This document shows positions 34,159 to 58,665 of a stretch of 64,000 nucleotides of DNA, in pieces. The DNA is taken from contig ML978124.1 of the NCBI GenBank assembly GCA_010015805.1, positions 806,001 to 870,000 on the forward strand. The letters run 5' to 3'. Position 1 is the stretch's first letter. The number at the start of each line of letters is the position of its first letter. The notes below the pieces were generated by a model. The model was not told the origin of the DNA. It worked only from the letters and a program-made list of their open reading frames with translations, and searched no databases. A program made the position numbers and the translations under genes. This DNA is from Rhizodiscina lignyota (taxonomy: Eukaryota).

Positions 34159-35481
34159 TCATGTGTTCATTGGAAAAGACACCATGGGGAACAGCACAGC
34201 TGGTATATACGACGAGTCTGTCAACGACGGTCTGTGCCTCCTAGCCATAGTACGTTTATGTCTTCTGAGAACAAGCTTGATGTAAGAATAGAGTATCGTC
34301 CGATATGCTTCTCTCGAGATCTTGGCGGGTAACCTTGGATCGCGGTGGAATCTATGCCACGTTTCTTGATACACGGCTTCCAAGCTGTTCAAGAATTCGG
34401 AAGAACCATCGTTTTCCGAGTCTGCCGCTATGCCGTGCGCTGTCGAGGATGTCGTATGAATGAGTCCAAGTCGATTCCAAAGCACCCAGGCTACGCCGAC
34501 AAAAATGCGCATTTGCTCTTTGGACTTCTCCACGATCCAACCAGCTGCTATTTTCGCTACAGTAGTCATCCATACCTCCCGCAAGGAGCGTCTATAATTT
34601 ACGGGCACTTGATAGACTTCACCCAGCATGGAGAGGAGCGCAAAAACCTGGTCTCGCGGTTCAGAGCACTGGCATCCCGCCGTAAGCAATAACACAGAGT
34701 GCCAACTCCTTTGCGATGCCCCCTGCTCGCCGAAATGACTACGGCCGCGAACAACCAACATGACTGACAGGCGGTCTGCATACTCAGCTTCTCCAGTTCT
34801 TAACAGGCCGCCTCGTCGAGATACATTCGGGTCGAAGGTGTCCAGATCGAGGGAGCGCGAACCAAGATACATTTGCAGCCGCTTCGCGAGCAGCATTTCC
34901 TGACAGACCCAAAGACGCGTCCAGTAAGAATTATCAAACACTTGCTCCAATGCCGCTCTATGATTTTGTGGCTTCAGTCGTGAATCTCGGTCGTTTTTAA
35001 GATTGCTACTCCGTGATTGCAGAGCAGTCATCAAGCCGCCGCTACCTGGGAAAGCTTGACCGAGCCATATGACCACTTCCTCGGCATTGCTGTAAATATC
35101 GCCCATTTGCTGAACCTGATGATTTCGTTCTATTTTATTGTCCTGGTCAATGGTGATCTGGTCAATCCAAAAACGAGTTGGTAAACTCAGCTCAGGCTGC
35201 GACTGAGCCATTGTCAAGAACTCGTAGAGATTTTGCCGAACAGAAAGAAGCCTGCCCTCGATGACTATATTGCTGCTCGGATCAGGCTCGCCCCAGGTGT
35301 ACGAGAGTGCTTTGTAGACAGGCTTGTCATCCAGACTGACATTTTCGATTTTACATCTCACACCTGTGGAAGCCCCTGCAGGAGCACGCAGAATCTGTAC
35401 GAGACGTATCTGTCGTTGATTAAGGTCGAGAGGCTTGTGGTGGAAGCGGCCATCAAATACACCTCCGATGAAAGGGACCAT
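34159..35481 (-). CDS. Heterokaryon incompatibility (HET domain, HET-6-like) protein
   Basis: IRLVQIL, YKALSYTWG, FWIDQITIDQ..ERNHQVQQMGDIYSNAEEVVIWLG, YWTRLWVCQEM, CSEPRDQVFALLSM; no intron needed. Confidence 0.92.
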   Translation of the reverse strand: MVPFIGGVFDGRFHHKPLDLNQRQIRLVQILRAPAGASTGVRCKIENVSLDDKPVYKALSYTWGEPDPSSNIVIEGRLLSVRQNLYEFLTMAQSQPELSLPTRFWIDQITIDQDNKIERNHQVQQMGDIYSNAEEVVIWLGQAFPGSGGLMTALQSRSSNLKNDRDSRLKPQNHRAALEQVFDNSYWTRLWVCQEMLLAKRLQMYLGSRSLDLDTFDPNVSRRGGLLRTGEAEYADRLSVMLVVRGRSHFGEQGASQRSWHSVLLLTAGCQCSEPRDQVFALLSMLGEVYQVPVNYRRSLREVWMTTVAKIAAGWIVEKSKEQMRIFVGVAWVLWNRLGLIHTTSSTAHGIAADSENDGSSEFLNSLEAVYQETWHRFHRDPRLPAKISREAYRTILYSYIKLVLRRHKRTMARRHRPSLTDSSYIPAVLFPMVSFPMNT

Positions 35482-35925
35482 GGCAGTGCATACCTTCTCG
35501 GTATCAGTTGCAGATTTCTCGAGAGAATTTCGTCCTGAGGCTGAGCAACGCCACAAAATCTCGCAATCACGTGTTCGGTGAATTGATTCCGCTTTGGGTC
35601 TTAGGGCAATTCGGACGACGAATAGCGAAGGCTAAGGCGCGATTCGCGAGTCAACCTCCACATGCAGCCCCACGACGATGCCTTGCGAAACTACGCAGGG
35701 CAGACTATACAGTGCTTGGTTGTTGTCCAAGCCACGATGGTCAACGTGGATGTAGCTCAGGGCAACTTGAGCGGGCTTTTCCATTCCTTTTATCTTTGCC
35801 GCAGGTGATCTCAACTCGCGCAATGTTACTCTCTTTAGCTTCGCTTCGACGCGTTTTTGCCCCTCAACATCAAACTCCAGTACTAGTTGATCAATCATCT
35901 GAGTGTTCGAGAGTCCTTGTCCAAT

Positions 35926-37647: not shown

Positions 37648-38432
37648 TTTATGATGACATCTACATGTCAACAGTACGACCGACGACCGACGATAGAACT
37701 TCATGTCCGCTATGCTTGTAGGTTTTAGATGTTTTCTGGACGAGGTTCCCCCGTTAAGGCTGGACTGATACCGTTAATTGCTGCGGTGGCTGCGCGTTGT
37801 GTTCTTTGGCATCGAGCGTCTGCTCTGTTTGTTACTTATGGCTTTGAAAATATCAATTACATTTTGACTTGCTCTTTCGACGACAGACATCAGTGATTCA
37901 TTCGTGGCTTGTTCTCTGGGCTGGCTCTGCTCACCGGCCGCCAAAGCGGGAGTGCGGGCATGACATAATCAGGGTCAGGCTCGGCAAGCCCCGCGCTAGT
38001 GCGCGCGCCTACGTTCTCTGGCCATAGCTTCTTGTGATAGCGCCACCTACTGCCGAAAGTTCACCTAAGATCCAAACACGAAATTCACTGCACCCTCGAC
38101 CATCTTTGCTTGTGTTAAAGCATGGGTTGTGTCTTCTTCTTGAGCACACCGTTTGACACGTCTGCCTGAATTTTTAACGCCTCGATCTTTCTTCCGGGGC
38201 CTCAACAAGCAGCCTTGCTACGTCACCTTTTTTTTCTCCCTTAAGGCTGAAGTGCCAGGCTACAGCTGCGGCGGACGTGCAGGAGCTATCAATTCATTCT
38301 TGAATTCTGCTCCCGCGCCTTCACTGCCTTCTTTTCTCGTTTGGAAGCAACAACTGGTTGTAGCTTTCGGGCACGCACTCGCTCGCGTTGATCGATACAT
38401 ATTCTGGTTGGCCTCGTTGCAGGGATTCCGCT

Positions 38433-41400
38433 ATGGAGCCAAACGACGACCGCGATGGCACTGCACCTCCACCCACCACGGTTCACAGTTCGCGTGCCCC
38501 AAGCTCGGAGCCTTCTTTGCCTCGCCGCGACCTTGAAGAGGATGCCGATACATCAGTGACCAGAAAACGCCCGCGCTTGGATAGCGGAGACCGGGCCACC
38601 AGAAGCATGTCGGCCGACAGAATATTATCCATGTCAACAAAGCCTGAGCCTCAACACTCCGCGGATGCGAACTCTGTCGAACACCACCAGAACTCTACTA
38701 ACGCTGAAGACACTCCAAGCAAACTCACCATCACCGTTCGACCACATCTAACTTCTCCTTCAAATGAAACCATCACTGACACCAGTCTTTCTGCTGGCAA
38801 CAATCACAACGGTCTTCCTACACCACCTGATGCCATGAATATCGACACGATGACGCCATCAACACCAACGAAAGAGCCTCACGACATGCGCGATGAGAAT
38901 GCTCGTAATGATTCTCTGATTGACGAAATGAAGAGCTCGCCGCCGGTCGTGGAAGTCGACGGGTCGCTCGATGATGGTGTTTCGGCACCAATAGTCACCA
39001 TGGATAACGAGGAATATCTGAGCCCCGCCGCTTTGCTTGGGTCTTTTCCCTTTCGCCAGCCTCACGAGACATATATCCAGGCGGCCAAGAATGTTACAGA
39101 AATGATGCAAAGCGGCACCCTCAAGACTGAAGTGCTTCGAGGTCTCTCTGACTGGATTGAGGAACACTTACGAGTCACTGCTCATTCTGAAGACCTCTGG
39201 GCCGACTTGTATTGTGAAGATAGCCCTTTTTGGGAGGAGATTGGCACAGGTTTCTCCAAGCTCTCCAACCGAAGTAAAGTTCAGTTCCTCGACAGCACTG
39301 TGCAACAAGGATTTGCGGCTGTCGAAAAGCTCGTCAGATCTTACGTCCAGCTCTGTGCCCGGCTGTTACGGGTCGATACATTTCTTCTCCAGCAACTAAA
39401 GGAGGACGAGGAAAAATTCCGACTCCTCTGCGCGCGGTATCTCCGAGCCATGGCGCAGATTGCGCAGTGTCCTTGTGGAGGCGACGACGGCGGCATTCGA
39501 GATCTGCTCACAAAAGCCTACACCCGCACACAGACCAGAGTTACGATGCAACTACTTGATGTCTTCTTCAGCGAGTCCGTCAACGGAATGCGTTCGCTTG
39601 TACCTTTCGCGGCGCATTGCTTTGAGTGGTCTCACCGACACGCAGGACTCTGCCAGCCTCTTTTGTACGCCATTAAGATCACCACTGGCTTCGCGAGATG
39701 CGTCGAGGAAAATACGATGCATTATGGGCAATTGACTATCGACCCGCAACTGCAAGCTCCGTTCATCACGACTGCTGTGCAAATGTTTCGTGCTATTAAT
39801 GTGCATCTTCAAGATTGCGCCGGAAAGGTTTCTTTTCTACCAAATGAAGTCCGCAGGAGTCTCTTCGACACCACCTCTTCTCTCCTCATCGAGCTCTCAC
39901 GATTGTCCGAGGAGCAGGCGACTCTTCTTTTCCAAGCTCTTGTCGGTGATCCAAACTCGTGCCCTAAATCTCTCCGGCCGGAACTCATTGGCCATGTATG
40001 GAAAATCAAGACCTTGAAAAAGCACATCGCCAAAGGCAAGATGGAGATACGGGTCATGGGCGTTGATATCATGCAGCACCTGCTGGTGTCAGTGTGGCAG
40101 GAGCGCGACAGAAACGGCAATGACCCAGTGCTGCAATATCTGGTGACGGTCCTGTTGGAGGAAAAGATTATCAACTACATGGTTGGGGTCGACTCTCACC
40201 CGACTCTCATCTCACGATGCGGAAACATCATTGGTCTTCTTGCTGTGACACACAGATATGGACCCGCTGAAACGGACATTATCTGGAACACAGTCGCCAA
40301 CAGCCCAGATCCTCGTGTCGTCGCCGCTACACTCCAAATGTTCTCGTCAATCCTGAACTTAATTCACATGCCAGATGTGCTGCATATTTGCAAGAAAATG
40401 GAAGAGCTACCGATTGCAGCTTTCAATGTTGATATCGTCCAATTTTTTCGAAGACTTCTCGGTCGAGTACGGGGTACCGATGGCAACACCAGCATCCAAG
40501 AGTGGCATGACAGCCCCGATAGAATGAATGCATACCACCTCTGCATGCGCATGACGAAGGAAACTTTCCCTGGAAAGTCTCAGGTGCCGCAGTCGAAGCA
40601 CATCCACGCCGAGGCCGTGACGGAGTTATTAGGGCTTGCTCAATCGGGCATGTTGGCGGACCGTGCGCTCATTTATGCAGACCTCTTGAAAGAGATTCAA
40701 GCTCGCTCTCCAGAGACAGGGGCAAATATGGAAGTTCTGTTCCATATGCTCAGAAACTGTTTCGAGCAAGATCTTGACACTGCCATGCAACTTGACCTCT
40801 TCAGAATAACAATTGAAGAGCTGCGCAGCTATGTCCAGGTCAGATCGCAAGAATCGTCTACCACGAGCGACCAGAGCTTTTGGCTGGCAGAACTTGGGTC
40901 GAGACTTGACCTCGTGGTCCTCCTCTTGCACCGTAGGCCTGGTTCCGCGCCAGAGGACCTTCTGCGCCCTCTGTGGGATGTCATGGTTGGAGACGAAGCA
41001 ATCAATAACTCTGCAAGAGATGCTGCTTGGTACAAGCTTGCCGACATTGCTCGACCTCAAAATGTCCACCAACCGTTTCTTGATCGGTCTCTTACTCAAT
41101 ACCTCCCGGAACTGAATCCTCAATATTACACCCCTCAGCTGTATTCCTTCATCGAAAAGGGAGTCAGATATCAACTCGTCCTTCAAGGAGGTGCTCGGTT
41201 GAATGGGGAGGGCCTCGTTGATGTGCCAAGTGCAGACTTAATGTGGCGTGCAATGCTCTCCGCACCAGTCGGCACTATTGAGGACGCTGTGAGCAAGCTC
41301 CTAGCTGCCGCATACAATGATACAGCTCTTGGCAAATTACCAAAGACTGCCATTGAGGCGACACACATTTTTGTTGCCAACAAATGCGTCAGTGAGATGG

Positions 41401-44400
41401 TCAAAGCAGCCTCTGAGGCCCAACCACAGACTATGGATTCTAGCGACGCTATGGAAACTGAGGAGCCAAGTAATGTCGTTTCTTCAGTGGTACGCTTCCG
41501 TCGAACGGTCTTCTTCCTTGGGACGTTATTGCAAAGCGTACGAAGCAATACAGCATTCATTACAGCTCCAAAGCCGACTATTGATACGGATACTTTGCCA
41601 GACATCAATCGTGGTGATCCAATCATCATTAAGTATCAATCGTTCAACGGCCATGTAGGTCCTTGGGAATCGGTTGAGGTGGGCGACCTGGAGACACGGC
41701 GCGACCTCTACGTTAGACTCTCTAGGCGAACAGGATTCCAAAACTTTTTCATCATCTCTTCCGGTCAAAGATTGAATCTGCTGGACAATGCCTCACAGAC
41801 CCTGCAAGAGTGGGGCAAAGCTAAGACACCAATACTGGTGAAGAAGGATACGAATGCTGCAGATTTTACCGACAATAATCTCAGCGTGGGACGATGTGCC
41901 ATGGAGATGGAAATTCTGAAGAGCTTTGATAAGCTATACGCCCTGATGGACCGAGATGACGAATTGGCTCGACTGACGTACGATTTTCTGGCAAAATTCC
42001 CACCGCACCAAAGCACCCAGCTTGGTCCGTTATGCAGCGGAACTGCAACAGTGGACGACGCATTCCCGGCCGGCAAACTATTCAAGACAAGATACAGTAT
42101 CCGCTGCCTTCAAGCACGCCTTGAGTCACAACTGCGTTCGAGCAGCGTAGATTTGCCTTTCGTGCAAGGTTCCTTGCGCCTCCTCTCAGCTGCCTTTAGC
42201 TGCGGCAGAGTATCCAGAGAATCCAGCAATGATCATCTCGACATAACGGTGATCTCTGAAATGGTGCATTGCTATTTGAAATTCCTTAGGGAAATTCCTA
42301 CCAAGGCTGAGGATATTCCTGACGGCGAGATCTTGGCTGACCAACTCCTGGCCGTCTTGGAGAACTCTATGGCATCTTCACTAGAGATTCTCATGTGTGA
42401 GACCTACTACACGATATTGCTTGCATCGCTGCACTGGCCCTCGGTATGGAATAGACTTCAAACGAAGGACCTGGAAGAGCTTCATAAGCAACTCCTACTC
42501 GTAGATTTCCAACCAGGTCCGATACCGAATCTCGGCAATGCTGAGCGTCCCACTGTCAGAGCCAACATATCACATTTCATCAAGGAGCTCATATCAACTG
42601 ATCTCCCGTGGGCGTGTGTGACCGCAAACGAGATTGCAGCATTCTTCTGGAAGTTGTTCGTGCCTATGCTCCCGGAGACCATCAATTATGAAGCCCATTC
42701 TGTCGACTTCTTTCACATCGCGGATAATGTTTTTGTTAAGCTCTACGAAGAGTCGGATGAATCGAAATTGAGAGACGACACAGATGAATTGAGAGTGCTT
42801 TTTGAGACCTGGAGTGCTCTGCTTCTAGAGCACAAACCCGAAGAATTCGCCGGGCGAGATGAACGTGTTCCTATCGTCTATGGCTTTGCCCAACTGCTGC
42901 GACACTGTGCTTACTTCCTTCGGCAAAGCGCGAAACCAATACAGGCTGATCAGTTTATTGAAGACCTTTTCGACCGATTCCTCTTTCCGCCCTTGGCTTT
43001 ATCTGAAGCCGATCCGGATGCAACGGCCGCGGAGCTCATGCCATTACTCGATACACTTACGCGGAAGAGAGTCAATCAATTGATCTTGGCTTTATGCCAG
43101 AGCCAGGAGAGTTTGAAAAAGATGATCGCTCGCGCGAACGACTCACTTTTCGACTATGATCCTCAACAAGGTCTTTACTGGAGAAACCGTACACTCCGAT
43201 CATCTACTGGACTTGTTGGAATCAAGAACCTCGGTAACACATGTTACATGAATTCGTTGCTCACTCAACTGTTCATGAATGTTGCATTTCGAAAGTTCAT
43301 TCTCAGCGTACCGGTACAGGAAGATTCCCAAACTCAGCCGCTAGTCTGGAATATGCAGGTTCTCTTTACGAAAATGCAAAATGGATATGGGAAATATGTC
43401 GACGCTACGAAGCTTACGCAGTCCATCAGAACTTTCGAGGGAGAAGCAATCGACATCACGCAACAGATGGATGTAGAAGAGTTTGAGAATTTGCTCATCG
43501 ACCAACTTGAGGGCCAAATTTTGGATCCGGTGTCTAAGCAAGTTTTCCGCGACTTTTATGGCGGCCAGATGATCAATCAGATCAAGTCGAAGGAATGCGA
43601 GCATGTTTCGGAAAGACTTGAGCCTTACTTTGCAGTTCAATGCGATGTAAAGGGCAAGAGTAATCTCTGGGAGAGTCTACAAGCCTTTGTCGAAGGAGAT
43701 GTGATGGAGGGAGACAACAAGTACAAGTGCGAATCATGTGGTGGCCGTTTTGTCAGCGCTGTCAAACGGGTCTGTCTGAAAGATGTTCCAGACAACCTCA
43801 TCTTCCATCTGAAGCGCTTCGACTTCGACATTGGCACGATGCAGCGGAGCAAGATCAACGACCTGTTCGAGTTCCCAATGCGCATAAACGTCCACCCATA
43901 CACCATCGAGCACCTCAACAATCCCGCCAATGCAACCGAGGACAACTTTGACTTGGTTGGAGTATTGCTACACAAGGGCGTTGCAGAGCATGGCCACTAC
44001 TTCTCTTATATCCGCTCGCGACCTGGTGTAAACAACGAGCCACCGAAATGGATTCAATTCGACGATGCAGATGTGACAGAGTTCAACCCGTCAGAGATAA
44101 AGGAAAAATGCTTTGGCGGCTGGATGGACCCGAAAGAGGTGCCTCTTATTGACGGCCAAATTCTTCAAAAGGGTTACAACGCGTACATGCTTTTCTACCA
44201 GCGAGCAAACACAATCGAGCGCACCGATACCCTCATCCAGCAACCATTGCCAGGACCACCTGGCCCGCCCAAAGTTGCAGTGCCGGAAGCGCTTGAGAAA
44301 AGTGTCGCTGGCGAAAACGAATCAATGCTTCGCGAGTACGCCACCTTCGATCCAGAGCACATGGTCTTCATTGAGAACTTGCTTGGCAAGCTGCCATCAC

Positions 44401-46125
44401 TCCAAGGCCAGCAGTCCTGCTCCAACTCCCATGAATTTGAAAAGGCATCCATCAAACTCGCCATGAGATATCTCCACCAGGTCTATAGTCGCACAAAGGA
44501 TGTGCAGGCAACTCAGAGAATGTTCAGACTCATACGCAACATCATCGGGGATTGCTTGACCTGCAATATGTATGCCTTGACTCTCATCGCTCCAGAGCAA
44601 GGCGAGGAGCTGGAAGACACGAACCTCTTCCTCGATCTCACGATTCGTACAACCCTCGTCATTGTTCGCCACGAGTTTGCCGAGTTGATACTGGACATTC
44701 TCATGCTTCTGCGCGAACATGCGGATCTCGAAAAGTATGGCGTTCCCAATTGTGACGATGAATTTGACCCAGACCATCCATTTTTTGGCGTGGCTCCTGC
44801 AATTATTAGAATCTCGAAGGTTTGCGTCGAAACCATTCCGAAACTGGCCCTCAACCTCCGAGCTTGGGATGACTTTTTCAATTTGGTCCTTCGAATAGCC
44901 GGATTGGGCATTGGAGAAGTCAGCGCTCTCTTGTCTCATGGAGTATTCCAGATGTGTCTGGAGATCCTCTGCTGCAGTTGGACCCACCAGCGAGAAGAGC
45001 CTGAGTGGAAGAGACTCTACAAGCTACTCGAGAAACGCAGAGCACCTCACAACAAGCTCGTTGAACTGGTCCACATGCTTCTCAGCTCTATCGACCTACA
45101 GCAAGAAGTTGCCTTTGACAGTGAAGATCGCCTCGAGACTCTAAACGCGGAGACATACAAGTTCAGTCTCACTCAAAAAGAAGAGGCGCTTCTCACGGCC
45201 TGGGACTCCAGGAATGACGAGTATCCTCTGATTATGCGCATGTTTGATGCCTGGGATTATTTGCCGAATGAGCCATGCTACCCAAGCGAGATCCTGGCCA
45301 TCCTCATGAACGCAAACCTTGGGAATCCCCGCCAATTCCAGACCACTATCAGGAATGGACTGGAGGGGTATGGAGGTACAAACCTACAACCATTCTACGA
45401 TGGTGCCGCGGTATTCTGTCGTCAGAGCCATCACCGTCAGCTCATAATTGATATCCTCGACTTCTGTGTCGAACAAACCTTCCACCTTGATGCAAATAAT
45501 CTGGGCGTGCCCATACTTCGCTTCTTCAATACAATAACGAAGGCAGAAGCAACCAGTTCCTGGAAAGGTATCTACACACATTTGATGCGGAAGGTGGGTA
45601 GTTGGGCTCCGAATTTGTTGATGGATACGGATCACGCTGTACGCAACAGCACCTTCGACTTCGCCTTCGAGGTGCTCGTGGACTACACAATTCCAACGCT
45701 AGAGGAGCCATCCCAATTTGACAAGGAGAGGGTTAAGGCTGTTCACAGTTTCATCATTGAGGGAAGCAACAAATTGCGCCGTTCATTCAACACACAACAA
45801 CTTGGAAAGCAATCACTCTCGTCCATTGTCACCATGCTAGTTGATGCTGCGCAGTTCCTGCAGGATCTGAACAAGAGCGAGAAGCCGGGAACGATCGCTC
45901 TTAGGGACAAGATTGATGACGATTTGATCGCCAAAGTACATGAGCTTCGCCAGGAGTACGAAAGCTGGCCGTTCGAGGATTCTGAAGTGGCACAATCTGG
46001 TACGTTCAGCAAGTTCATCCACGAGCTACTTGACTACTCTTACTAACACAAGCTGTTCGCTACCCGCAGACGAAGAGTGGCCGTCGGACGGGCTTCTCAC
46101 AGATGATGAGTACCTCGACAATTGA
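38433..46125 (+). CDS. Large ubiquitin C-terminal hydrolase (peptidase C19; USP34/USP24/USP9-like)
   Basis: Cys box GIKNLGNTCYMNS, QQMDVEEF, FHLKRFDFD, His box HKGVAEHGHYFSY, FDD, NAYMLFY. 3' intron 46000-46069. Confidence 0.95.
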
Positions 46126-54602: not shown

Positions 54603-56460
54603 CTACTGCTCTGCATCTTTCGCAACCTCCTCGTCGTCCACGACTTCTTTCTGATCAGCATCATCCTTCTGAACCACACCAACCTTCTCCTCTGCACCGG
54701 TTCTGTCCTCTGCGATGTCATTCTTCTCTGCAGCGTCCTTCTCCTTTGTAGTGTCCTTCTCCTTCGCAACTTCTTTCTGATCCGCACCATCCTTCTGAAC
54801 AGCGACATCCTTCTGAACAGCGACAGCCTTCTTCTGAATAGCGACAGCAAAAGGATTCACTTCAAACTCCTTTAGTACGAAGGGGCATCGTTCCTGAGTC
54901 ATGCTGCCCCACGTGTTGCCTCCAGATGGCGGCAGTCCTTTCATCGCCAGCATAACGCTCCATATGAAGTTGTGTGGAACCTCTTCTCTGCGAGCGCTAT
55001 CTATCAGGTGAAGGTCAGCGTGGGAGCTGAACTTGACCACAAGGACCTTCAGCAGTGGGTCTTGCTCCGGAAGATTGTCATATGCCTCCTTGATCATATC
55101 TGGCGACAGTCCCTCCTTGCAGAATGGGTTTCTCATCTGCGTCCAGATTGCCTGAAGGGTTTCTCGCTTGAGTAGAGGGATGCGGTAACGATCGGCGAAG
55201 AGATAGAGCTTAAGGAGGAGCTCGTAGGGCAAGCGCTCTGGCTGTGCGGAGCCGTCGAAATCATCGACGAGCTTTCGGGAGTGGAGCCACTCGATGAAAT
55301 GGACGATTACCACTGGTTCGGTCTCCGGAAACTCCAGGACGTCCTCAGGTTTGTCCATGAAATAAGGCGATACGGCATAGAGCCAGGACTTCCAAGACTT
55401 GTACTCCTTTTTTTCAGGGCCGATGAGGAGGGTTACAGGTTTGAGGTTCTCAAATCTAAATGTCCAGTTCAGCACTGTCAAGAACTTAATTGCTTTGTAG
55501 AACATACTGATGAGTAGGCCGGAGTCCGTCGGGTAACATATTGCGCATTTTCGGGCGAGAGGCTACTTGGAACTCGAAGGATCCACCCATATTCGCGGTG
55601 TACTCCGCGAATGGAATTGTCTGGCGAGAGCCCTGCTCATTCGAATCTTTATGTGTTGGCAGTTTTCCCCTGCCCGCGATGGAATCGGCAAGTCGATGTT
55701 CCTCTAGAGACCACAGTTCATAAGTCGGCTGCATCGAAATGGACTGGAAGACTACTATTCTCGTACCTTCCTTCACCTTTGTCGGCTCAAACGGACGAGT
55801 GCCGGTGCCTGCATCCTCAGGCAATGCTGTTACGCCTCTTGGAGGACCACCACTGCTTGCAATACTGAGCCCTGCTCCAAATCCTCCAAACGCTCGTGCG
55901 CTTGAAGCCATGGACTGGCCGTTGCCGCCGGCATTGTTGTCAGTCGAGACACGAAGGTTGCTGAAGAGCCCGCCTCCGGTGTTGCTGCCGCTCCCAAAGC
56001 CAGAGTTACCGCCACTCCCAAAGCCAGAGTTGCCGCTCCCAAAGCCAGTGTTGCCGCTCCCAAAGCCAGAGTTACCGCTCCCAAAGCCAGAGTTACCGCC
56101 ACCGAAGAGTCCGCCTCCGGTGTTGTTGCTGCTCCCAAAGCCACCGCTACCGTGACCGAAGAATCCAGGTGAAGGGGCACCTATGGCGGCGAAGAGGCCA
56201 TCTCTCTGAGGACTGCCGAAGCCACTAAAGGTGCTAAGATTTCCCAGGTTGTTGTTGGATGACGTGCTTACCACACTGGCAGTTGGAACACCGCTGGTAC
56301 CGCTTCCACCGGATGCGTCTTGAGCACTCGAGCTGTCGAAAACCTTGCGAGCAGCGCCTTTCATAGCAATGTCTGCTGTGAGCGGATGGGCTCCACATGG
56401 GTGAGTAGCACCACAGATTGCGCACTTTAGTGCGCCGTCGCCGTCATCTCCGCCAGACAT
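54603..56460 (-). CDS. BTB/POZ protein with N-terminal Cys/His motif, FG repeats and Nup98-like GLEBS motif
   Basis: Exons 56460-55508 and 55455-54603; phase-2 intron GTATGT..GCTGAAC..TAG keeps the frame. BTB: VTLLIGPEKKEY..AVSPYF..FIEWLHSR..LLKLYLFADRYRIPLLK. Confidence 0.8.
55987..56100 (-). repeat. Coding 21-bp minisatellite encoding (GNSGFGS)n FG repeats
   Basis: About five copies of ccaaagccagagttRccgctc, flanked by two copies of a GFGS..NTGGGLF-coding unit. Confidence 0.9.
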
Positions 56461-57296
56461 TGTGTTTTTGTTGCAATAGATGCAACTAGTTCAAGGTCGG
56501 TTGAGTATCTGACCGCAACCTCTGTGGAAGTGGGTTGATGAGGGTGGTGTTTTTTCCAAAGAGGTTGTGGAAGGTAAAGAGAGAGGAGATGTAGAAAGTT
56601 GAGGCCTCGACCTTTAACTACAGGCAGCAGAGAAAGAGGTCTTGGCGAAAGTTTAATTAAAAAAAAGAGGGCTGGTGTTAGGGCTGGTGTTAACAGTACG
56701 TCATGAAGCGAATTGCACTGCCGCTTGCAGATGTGCCTTCACTGCGAAGGGTGTTGGAGGTCGAGATGTTAATACTCTTAAAGACGCTTACTCTCAGAAG
56801 GGGAGCCCGGTGAATAGGCCAATCTCTGTACATAGTGCGAGCTCGGCGGAAGAAGGCGTGTTGGGTACACAGTTTAACCTCTGCGTATAATACAAGCATT
56901 GGCGGAAGAAGGGTTGCCCTTAGTTAAAGCAATGCTCTGTCTATCCATACGAACTGTTAGTTGAACTGTTGTATTGGATCAAAGCAATACTCTACGTACC
57001 TGTGCGAGCTGAAAGTTTGACGCCGACCTCTAATCAAACCAATACTGCATCTGCCAGTGCGAAGTTAAAGTTGAAAGCTTGCTCGAAGTGTGAAACATCG
57101 CTCGAAGTGTGGTGTTCATCATCGATCAGGATTTTAATCTGCTAGCTAACCACATTGAATAAGCTATCCTTTGCAAATTTGTCTGTTGAAGCAATTCGCC
57201 ATTGCTCTGCCATCTGAGATCCATTTTGAATATCTACTGCGCTTCAGCCTTTCCCAGTTTCTCCTGAATGAACTGGTGATGCAGATTCTTCCTTCT

Positions 57297-58665
57297 TCAC
57301 TTGGTCTTCCTGGATACTTCCTCAGATAGCTGAAAAGGACACCAGTGCTTCTTCAGAATCGACTCTCCACTCCCAGCGCCTTTACCCTTAACCTTTGAGA
57401 GGACACGAAACAGGAAGTCATTTGGATACTGTTCCCCATCACTTTGCTTCAGCTGACTCATGTCGAAATCCACAGCGAACTTCTCAGCAAGTATCTCCAG
57501 CAGCGGATCCTTCTCTGGGAGGCTACTGTAGGCCTTTGTCACCGACTTCAATGAGAGCGCCTGTCCATCTCCCTGACCGAGTCTCACGTGTGTCCACAGC
57601 ACTTGGAGGACGTCTCGCTTAAGTTGCAGCACATTGAACGTGTCGGAGAAGACGTAGAGGTTAAACAGGAGGTCGTACGGCCACTGTGATGCTTTTTTGT
57701 GTCCTTTGTCGTCAACAAGGCAACGAGAATGGAGCCACTCGAGGAAGTAGGCAAACGTCTCGGGGTCCGTATCTAGCTCAACAGTGTTTTCCGTTGATTC
57801 TCTGGTGCCCCCGTTGAACACGCCTTCGAAGTACGGCGAGACTGCGCAGAGGAATGACTTCCATACCAGGAACGGCTTCTTCTCGGAGCCCACGACAACA
57901 GTCACGGGCTCAAGATTATCATATCTGGTTTGCGTCAGTATCTTCAATCCGATACACTTTCGAAGTCCCTTACCGAAGAGTGGGCCTGTACACTAAGTCC
58001 GTATCGTCGGAACGTTTACGCTTCACTGTGCCTGGTTGTGTGGTCTGCGGAGATGGAGGCGGAGCAGCTGCAAATGGACTGATTGAGTTCGCGTTGCTGA
58101 ACAGAAGGCTACCAGAGGGTACGGTAGCTTGAATAGGTGTTTTTGCGCTTCCTCCAAGTGAGCCGCTGTTACTCAGGGTGTTGCTAACATTGCTGCTGTT
58201 GTCGGGCGAGGTGTTGTGAGCAGCAAGATATGGAGTGGTCCCAAGGACACCGCTCTCTTTCCAGTTACGAAATATGGCACTGCTGCTCCGCTGGTCTTTC
58301 TGTAATGACGTGCCAAGAGCACCAGAGCCCGGTGTGAAGGGGCCGGATTGGGACGACGAATTGGAGTTGCTGGAGGATTCTTGTCGAGGTGGGAAGGTTT
58401 GTGGGATGCCACCACGACCTCTTGGGGTGCCACCACGGCCTCTGGGGCTGCCACCACGACCTCTGGGGTTGTCATGGGCGGGTGTCTGTTGCGGCATGGC
58501 AGCGAGGACCGCGGAGCCACTGCCAAGGTTGCTTGGGTTGCTGTTGTTGGTGTTGTTGTTCGGCGCGTTATTAGATGACGAAGTATTTACAGCGCTGGCG
58601 AAATGCGCTGCACATGGCCAGGCAGCACCGCAGGAACTGCAGTAGGATGGAGCGCGACTAGCCAT
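57297..58665 (-). CDS. BTB/POZ protein with N-terminal Cys/His motif, RGG repeats and basic NLS-like motif (paralog of the adjacent gene)
   Basis: Exons 58665-57974 and 57924-57297; phase-2 intron GTAAGG..ACTGAC..CAG. BTB: VTVVVGSEKKPFLVWKSFLCAVSPYFEGVFNGGTRES..FLEWLHSR..LYVFSDTFNVLQLK. Confidence 0.85.
58408..58470 (-). repeat. 3 x 21-bp coding repeat encoding (xPRGRGG)3
   Basis: gccaccacgRcctctKgggNt present three times in tandem. Confidence 0.92.

Follow-up and report, generated by a model that had tools for sequence, protein, structure and literature searches.

The gene described here, which we call gene A, lies on the minus strand of a 64,000-nt stretch of Rhizodiscina lignyota DNA (assembly GCA_010015805.1, contig ML978124.1, forward-strand positions 806,001 to 870,000). 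This whole stretch is referred to as the window, and all coordinates are counted from its first nucleotide. The coding region of gene A occupies positions 54603..56460 and consists of two exons, which after splicing give a coding sequence of 1806 nt with one terminal stop and a predicted protein of 601 aa. A first-pass annotation of this DNA had proposed that FG repeats, a Gle2/Rae1-binding (GLEBS) segment and a BTB/POZ domain are joined in one spliced open reading frame (ORF), and our analysis led to the same predicted ORF. We are highly confident in this anatomy taken together with the homology of the GLEBS segment, for which the evidence is given below.

Gene A and its Nup98-type GLEBS segment

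Exon 1 (55508..56460) is an open frame, which starts with the first ATG at position 56460 (A at -3) and encodes residues 1-317 and two bases of codon 318. It is followed by a phase 2 intron of 52 nt (55456..55507) with the canonical fungal signals GTATGT...TAG, and the predicted junction 55508/55455 completes a Gln codon. Exon 2 (54603..55455) is also open and encodes the BTB part, a helical extension and a charged repeat tail, which ends with the stop codon TAG (54605..54603). In the frame listing of the minus strand, the long open frames 56490..55486 and 55562..54603 both overlap the intron stretch. When exon 1 is read without splicing, a stop is met in frame a few codons inside the intron. 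Thus, intron retention would lead to a protein with FG repeats and GLEBS, which is devoid of BTB.

Residues 81-195 (55876..56220) constitute a Gly/Ser/Asn/Phe-rich disordered region with 11 FG dipeptides, three GLF and one exact GLFG, and the remainder of the 601-aa protein contains no FG. Five of the 11 FG are encoded by a 21-nt tandem array of heptad FG repeats, which was detected by repeat search (55986..56099, 5.3 copies, 88% match). Pfam Nucleoporin_FG (PF13634) gave no match in gene A, and with these few motifs in approximately 115 residues the region falls short of a long GLFG/FG domain. Since the FG part is of low complexity, the GLEBS alone carries real weight in the alignment with Nup98.

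The GLEBS segment comprises the 48 residues 218-265 (55666..55809). A phmmer search with residues 200-317 of gene A against 1.84 billion representative proteins resulted in eight matches at E<=1e-3. Six of these proteins (P0005-P0008, P0010 and P0012) carry two to four copies of the Pfam domain Nup98_GLEBS (PF21240) with E-values from 5e-9 to 8e-25. Another one, P0009 (1344 aa), is a fungal Nup98/Nup145 orthologue with an autoproteolytic domain (PF04096, 9e-50) and FG repeats (PF13634), and its PDB matches are Nup98, Nup145N and Nup116. The last one, P0011, turned out to be an unrelated repeat protein. In the BLASTP alignment of gene A with P0009, 27 of 51 positions are identical (53%, ungapped, E 2e-13). 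When P0009 was compared to the window by tblastn, one significant match was found (residues 177-290 on 55980..55669, 41% over 114 residues), and this match is collinear, with FG repeats followed by GLEBS.

For comparison at the profile level, 18 GLEBS copies were cut from seven proteins and used to build a hidden Markov model (HMM). The gene A segment reached 57.5 bits with this custom HMM (E 6e-17, positions 2-48 of 50), while among the 1314 ORF pieces from all six frames of the window the next best reached 9.6 bits. When the segment was aligned by hhalign to seven GLEBS copies with the query left out, the probability was 99.3% (E 2.9e-20, 53 columns). The GLEBS profile also finds Nup98 GLEBS chains crystallised in complex with Rae1, namely 3MMY_B (1.1e-11), 7BYF_B, 4OWR_B and 7VPG_B (all around 1e-11), and there is no Bub1 or Mad3 GLEBS chain among its 17 PDB matches at E<=1. 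Single-sequence PDB searches with exon 1 and with a 62-aa segment gave nothing relevant, and a protein-atlas look-up of exon 1 gave no usable match. Based on these sequence comparisons, residues 218-265 are a true homologue of the Nup98-type GLEBS and are nearest to that of the fungal Nup98 orthologue, in agreement with the earlier proposal that the segment 55809..55666 follows this motif including its diacidic EE.

Seven columns are invariant in the 18 GLEBS copies (I, Y, S, E, E, L and R), and six of them (I, Y, S, E, E and R) are kept in gene A. The residues E253 and E254, which belong to the core EEHR (residues 253-256, 55693..55704), stand in the two invariant Glu columns, and both hairpin arms are preserved in an ungapped alignment of approximately 50 residues. 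Among the individual copies, that of P0009 shows the highest identity to the segment (26/50), while the others have at most 20/47. Furthermore, the Met in the stretch SI-x-MQP is common to gene A and P0009 alone among the 18 copies. The diacidic pair is of special importance in the known complexes, since E201/E202 of Nup98 and E154/E155 of Nup116 are described to form salt bridges to conserved Arg residues of Rae1/Gle2 and to be required for binding, and reversal of these Arg partners is reported to abolish the association (PMC3783196).

The BTB domain and the tandem paralogue

The first 110 residues of exon 2 (55125..55454) correspond to a divergent BTB/POZ core, which was recognized by comparison with a paralogue described below and with a family profile. 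In gene A a linker of 50 residues lies between the GLEBS-like segment and this domain. The BTB core is followed by a helical extension (exon 2 residues 111-200, 54855..55124), which is conserved in the paralogue and whose helices were predicted in a low-confidence AlphaFold model, and by a Lys/Glu/Asp-rich C-terminal tail (54606..54854), in which a repeat search detected 18-nt tandem repeats (arrays within 54683..54848). Like the 21-nt FG array these tail repeats are in frame, and both represent recent repeat growth in the two disordered regions.

The family profile was built from exon 2, the paralogue and the 211-aa relative P0021. Its PDB matches include KLHL26 (1.1e-7) and SPOP (7.5e-7), followed by KLHL3 and KEAP1 (down to 1e-3), KBTBD2, BCL6 and Elongin C, and the best 60 of the 78 PDB sequences at E<=10 all have the BTB fold. 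The paralogue reaches 33.8 bits with Pfam BTB (PF00651) and P0021 passes the cut-off too, the best E-value being 6.5e-10. A language-model look-up placed exon 2 with Ascomycota BTB clusters (0.97). An alignment-based protein query found P0020 and P0021; word-index protein searches with exon 2, at near and longer lengths, gave no match, but this kind of search is lossy, since it also missed the 38% identical neighbour. In a single-sequence PDB search with exon 2 nothing relevant was found. The AlphaFold model, which was based on a two-sequence alignment, has a mean pLDDT of 44, and in a Foldseek search with this low-confidence model almost all matches were Skp1, KLHL3, BTBD6, SPOP and Elongin C, none of them at E<=0.001 and with high root mean square deviations. 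Prediction of an exon 2 dimer (two copies of residues 1-200) resulted in scores of 0.19 and 0.15 compared to a mark of 0.32, in runs made with no controls and with the custom alignment unused. Taking the profile and sequence matches together, we conclude that exon 2 belongs to the BTB family.

The paralogue, gene B (57297..58665, minus strand), adjoins gene A upstream on the same strand. It encodes a protein of 439 aa with a Cys motif at the N-terminus, a canonical BTB domain and, where gene A has FG repeats, three RGRGG repeats, and was found by sequence comparison to be devoid of GLEBS. The second exons of the two genes are 38% identical (E 1e-46), and the intron of gene B is in the same position and phase as that of gene A, one codon ahead of the conserved BTB start. 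The splice inferred for gene B gives letter for letter a public 439-aa protein record of the Dothideomycete R. lignyota. Thus, the splice model of gene A is supported by a paralogue, which shares the intron position and phase and whose own splice matches a public record. The Cys motif, C-x2-C-x5-C-x2-H, is located in residues 13-25 of gene A (56386..56424) and at 58603..58641 on the minus strand in gene B, with eight of 13 positions identical (E 7e-4). It has no Pfam family match in either gene and possibly forms a small, zinc-binding knuckle.

No piece of the gene B linker was listed by the custom GLEBS HMM at E<=10, and the sole piece of gene B that was listed is N-terminal (E 9). An alignment between the paralogue linker and the GLEBS flank (E 33) was considered as a trace of a GLEBS remnant, and was rejected because the custom HMM lists no linker piece. 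The module may have been gained by gene A or lost by gene B. Further away in the window there are a single open frame of 2560 aa (38364..46046, plus strand), which by eye resembles a very large ubiquitin-specific protease, and a frame of 490 aa (34159..35631, minus strand), which, also by eye, resembles a fungal HET-domain protein.

Distribution and comparison with known proteins

The closest relative of gene A that we found, and the sole close one, is the neighbouring gene B. When metagenome contigs were scanned with the GLEBS segment and the BTB alignment as queries, there were pattern matches, none of which was confirmed as a relative. None of the eight phmmer matches has a BTB domain, and none of the ten papers in the searched library that mention both GLEBS and BTB deals with a GLEBS-BTB protein, as judged by title and abstract. 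The six multi-GLEBS proteins, which originate from a chytrid (P0005), a plant (P0010) and metagenomes (P0006-P0008 and P0012), are uncharacterised and lie outside the nucleoporins. They differ from gene A by having two to four canonical EELR copies and no BTB, and by belonging to other lineages. The plant protein P0010 combines its three GLEBS with a C-terminal RING-H2 finger (zf-RING_2, 7.5e-12), and this GLEBS on a ubiquitin-ligase domain is a parallel to the GLEBS with BTB of gene A. As judged from sequence, the association of FG, GLEBS and BTB is a real, lineage-specific new domain combination made of known parts, which we found in a single species and which has a putative function.

Gene A resembles Nup98, Nup145N and Nup116 in the order of its elements, FG repeats and then a single GLEBS, and in the kept Glu pair that contacts Rae1/Gle2. 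SonB is the Aspergillus name for the Nup98-type GLFG nucleoporin. In contrast to Nup98, gene A has no FG after the GLEBS and its C-terminal half is BTB. The autoproteolytic domain PF04096 gave no match in the gene A protein or in the whole window, neither with Pfam nor by tblastn with P0009. Thus, BTB is indeed present where Nup98 has its autoproteolytic domain, as the first reading of the sequence had it.

Proteins outside the pore that have a GLEBS within a disordered stretch are also known, namely Bub1, BubR1/Mad3, BuGZ and NuMA, and hence the principle of such a GLEBS carrier is not new. In such non-nucleoporin proteins the GLEBS is described to recruit a WD40 propeller (PMC3061984, PMC5749825, PMC9203020). 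However, these proteins combine it with kinase or TPR, zinc-finger or coiled-coil parts and gene A combines it with BTB. Moreover, the motifs of Bub1 and Mad3 bind Bub3 and are not matched by the profile that matches the segment of gene A. On the BTB side, the best solved relatives are the Cul3 adaptors SPOP, KLHL and KEAP1, in which BTB is likewise combined with a separate partner-binding element. This element is MATH or Kelch downstream of BTB in the known adaptors, while in gene A it would be a linear motif upstream of a shortened BTB. Finally, the NUP98 fusions in leukaemia also consist of an N-terminal FG/GLEBS part and a foreign C-terminal domain (PMC2725295). The likeness to such fusions, pointed out in the first-pass annotation, holds in form only: these are somatic translocations, which join a full GLFG domain to chromatin- or DNA-binding parts, while gene A is a germline gene of a fungus with a much smaller FG part.

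Possible function of gene A and alternative explanations

We propose that gene A belongs to a small and rapidly evolving family of fungal BTB proteins and is specific to its lineage. Its disordered N-terminal half carries a module, a short FG run and then one GLEBS, that is homologous to the N-terminal region of Nup98/Nup145N. The simplest reading, which we regard as a reasonable inference from the sequence, is that this module was captured from the Nup98 of the lineage. The GLEBS of gene A would fold into a hairpin that covers the top of the Gle2/Rae1 beta-propeller, where the kept Glu-Glu pair could form the same two salt bridges as have been described in Nup98 and Nup116. Self-association, and possibly docking to Cul3, may come from the BTB part. 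The protein could keep some of the Gle2 from reaching Nup98 at the pore or compete with Nup98 for it; alternatively, it could present Gle2 to a ligase of the Cul3 type. With its FG repeats, it would enter the FG phase of the pore more readily. A precedent for competition exists in human cells, in which an overexpressed free GLEBS is reported to strip RAE1 from the nuclear envelope and to block the export of poly(A) RNA, and in which the effect is undone by proline mutations in the GLEBS or by additional RAE1 (PMC2133102). As a whole, the mechanism of a BTB scaffold, which captures Gle2/Rae1 via a Nup98-type hairpin, is put forward tentatively, since we judge it to be somewhat less than probable. 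The same reserve applies to the prediction that gene A binds Gle2/Rae1 at present, which is plausible without being the expected outcome.

Several observations weigh against such a functional scaffold. In the GLEBS core, gene A has His at the position after EE, which is Leu in each of the 18 copies as well as in the crystallised motif of human Nup98, and after the kept Asp it has Ser instead of the Tyr found in 13 of the 18 copies; both changes had been noticed in the first-pass annotation. According to a review (PMC3061984), replacement of one residue in a GLEBS can be enough to disrupt its contact with the Bub3 propeller. Because the L-to-H change falls on the invariant Leu after EE, weakened or lost binding of Gle2 is a serious possibility. 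Further, Pfam PF21240 gave no match at E<=10 with the whole exon 1 and with three sub-segments, and its gathering cut-off of 27 bits is not reached by the segment. The proposed search with GLEBS profiles was thus positive with the profiles built in this analysis alone and negative with the curated one. The custom profiles, in turn, were built from proteins retrieved by the query, and this favours likeness to the query; the independent anchors for the GLEBS homology are the Pfam assignment of the six proteins and the PDB matches. The miss by Pfam is less damaging than it seems, because P0009, a true Nup98 orthologue, has a GLEBS (residues ~225-290) that scores just 16.4 bits when searched alone and is unreported in the full-length protein. 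As a side result of practical use, the Pfam model thus under-calls this type of fungal GLEBS.

The BTB part raises similar doubts. With Pfam BTB (PF00651, cut-off 20.5 bits) exon 2 alone gave no match at E<=10, and it lacks eight residues before strand 3, which are present in the paralogue and in P0021. As placed by eye, this loss aligns to the segment of SPOP holding Met-233, a residue described as part of the Cul3-clamping loop (PMC3597819). Since the loss falls in this stretch, a role as Cul3 adaptor should not be assumed. Finally, neither the 1.84 billion representative proteins nor the metagenome contigs yielded an orthologue of gene A. The collections searched contain a protein record for the neighbouring paralogue, but none was found for gene A, although the protein searches would have picked up an identical sequence. 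Gene A has perhaps been missed in the annotation of the public genome.

Taken in another way, these data would fit a relic, either a duplicated fragment of Nup98 or an ancient trait of the family, in which FG repeats and GLEBS persist and Gle2 binding is gone. Gene A would then encode, if expressed, one more rapidly evolving fungal BTB protein whose linker is of low complexity, or it would be a young gene drifting towards loss. The His and Ser substitutions beside and after the Glu pair, the missing Pfam GLEBS match, the degenerate BTB with its eight-residue loss and no Pfam match, the lack of an orthologue and of a protein record, the recent in-frame growth of tandem repeats in both disordered regions and the paralogue without GLEBS are all in line with this explanation. 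However, both exons are open over 1806 nt and the splice signals are intact. Moreover, conservation of six of the seven invariant columns and of both ungapped hairpin arms would be unexpected after long neutral drift. Because of the His/Ser changes, the shortened BTB and the missing orthologues and protein record, we consider a relic that does not bind Gle2 to be nearly as likely as the Gle2-capturing scaffold.

The same two substitutions could also have shifted the specificity of the motif, so that it now reads Bub3 and ties the BTB scaffold to the spindle checkpoint instead of mRNA export. Bub3 and Rae1/Gle2 are described to read related motifs via two Glu (PMC3061984), which makes such retargeting conceivable. 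Nevertheless, the segment groups with the Nup98-type copies, the GLEBS profile retrieves Nup98 chains and no Bub1/Mad3 chain among its 17 PDB matches, and BUB3 is described as being without affinity for the NUP98 GLEBS (PMC3061984). Retargeting to Bub3 is therefore improbable in our view. Still further from what the data suggest is a chance likeness between low-complexity sequences or a mis-joined piece of the real Nup98 gene of the organism. The compositional bias of the flanks and the lack of a Pfam match would be compatible with either, but chance is hard to reconcile with the hhalign E-value of 2.9e-20, with 57.5 bits compared to 9.6 bits for the next piece of the window, and with the fact that seven of the eight database matches are GLEBS proteins. 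A mis-join is contradicted by the absence of a Nup98 autoproteolytic domain from the window and by the downstream exon, which is BTB and is preceded by an intron in the position common to the paralogue. Such explanations are very hard to maintain.

Returning to the scaffold that would capture Gle2/Rae1, its value is limited, as gene A was found in a single species and has a substitution at an invariant position of the core. A broader idea, which we consider unlikely and mention as speculation, is that the GLEBS is a portable handle for the Gle2/Rae1 propeller gained repeatedly by ubiquitin-ligase scaffolds, in a Dothideomycete on a BTB adaptor of the Cul3 type and independently in a plant. Gene A would then be a natural Nup98-BTB fusion that resides in the FG phase of the pore and controls Gle2. 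Repeated uptake of this kind is hinted at by the plant protein P0010, because it joins three GLEBS to a RING-H2 finger. If this were true, the amount or location of Gle2, and hence the export of mRNA or of pre-60S particles, would be set by ubiquitylation or sequestration.

To our knowledge, it is through GLEBS motifs alone that the cell positions Gle2/Rae1 and Bub3, and we know of very few carriers. Gene A would add a new class of GLEBS carrier, in which a Nup98-type GLEBS and FG repeats are placed on a BTB scaffold. If functional, it would point to control of an mRNA export factor by turnover or sequestration. Gene A also illustrates the reuse of a nucleoporin module and is, in form, a natural parallel to the NUP98 fusion proteins.

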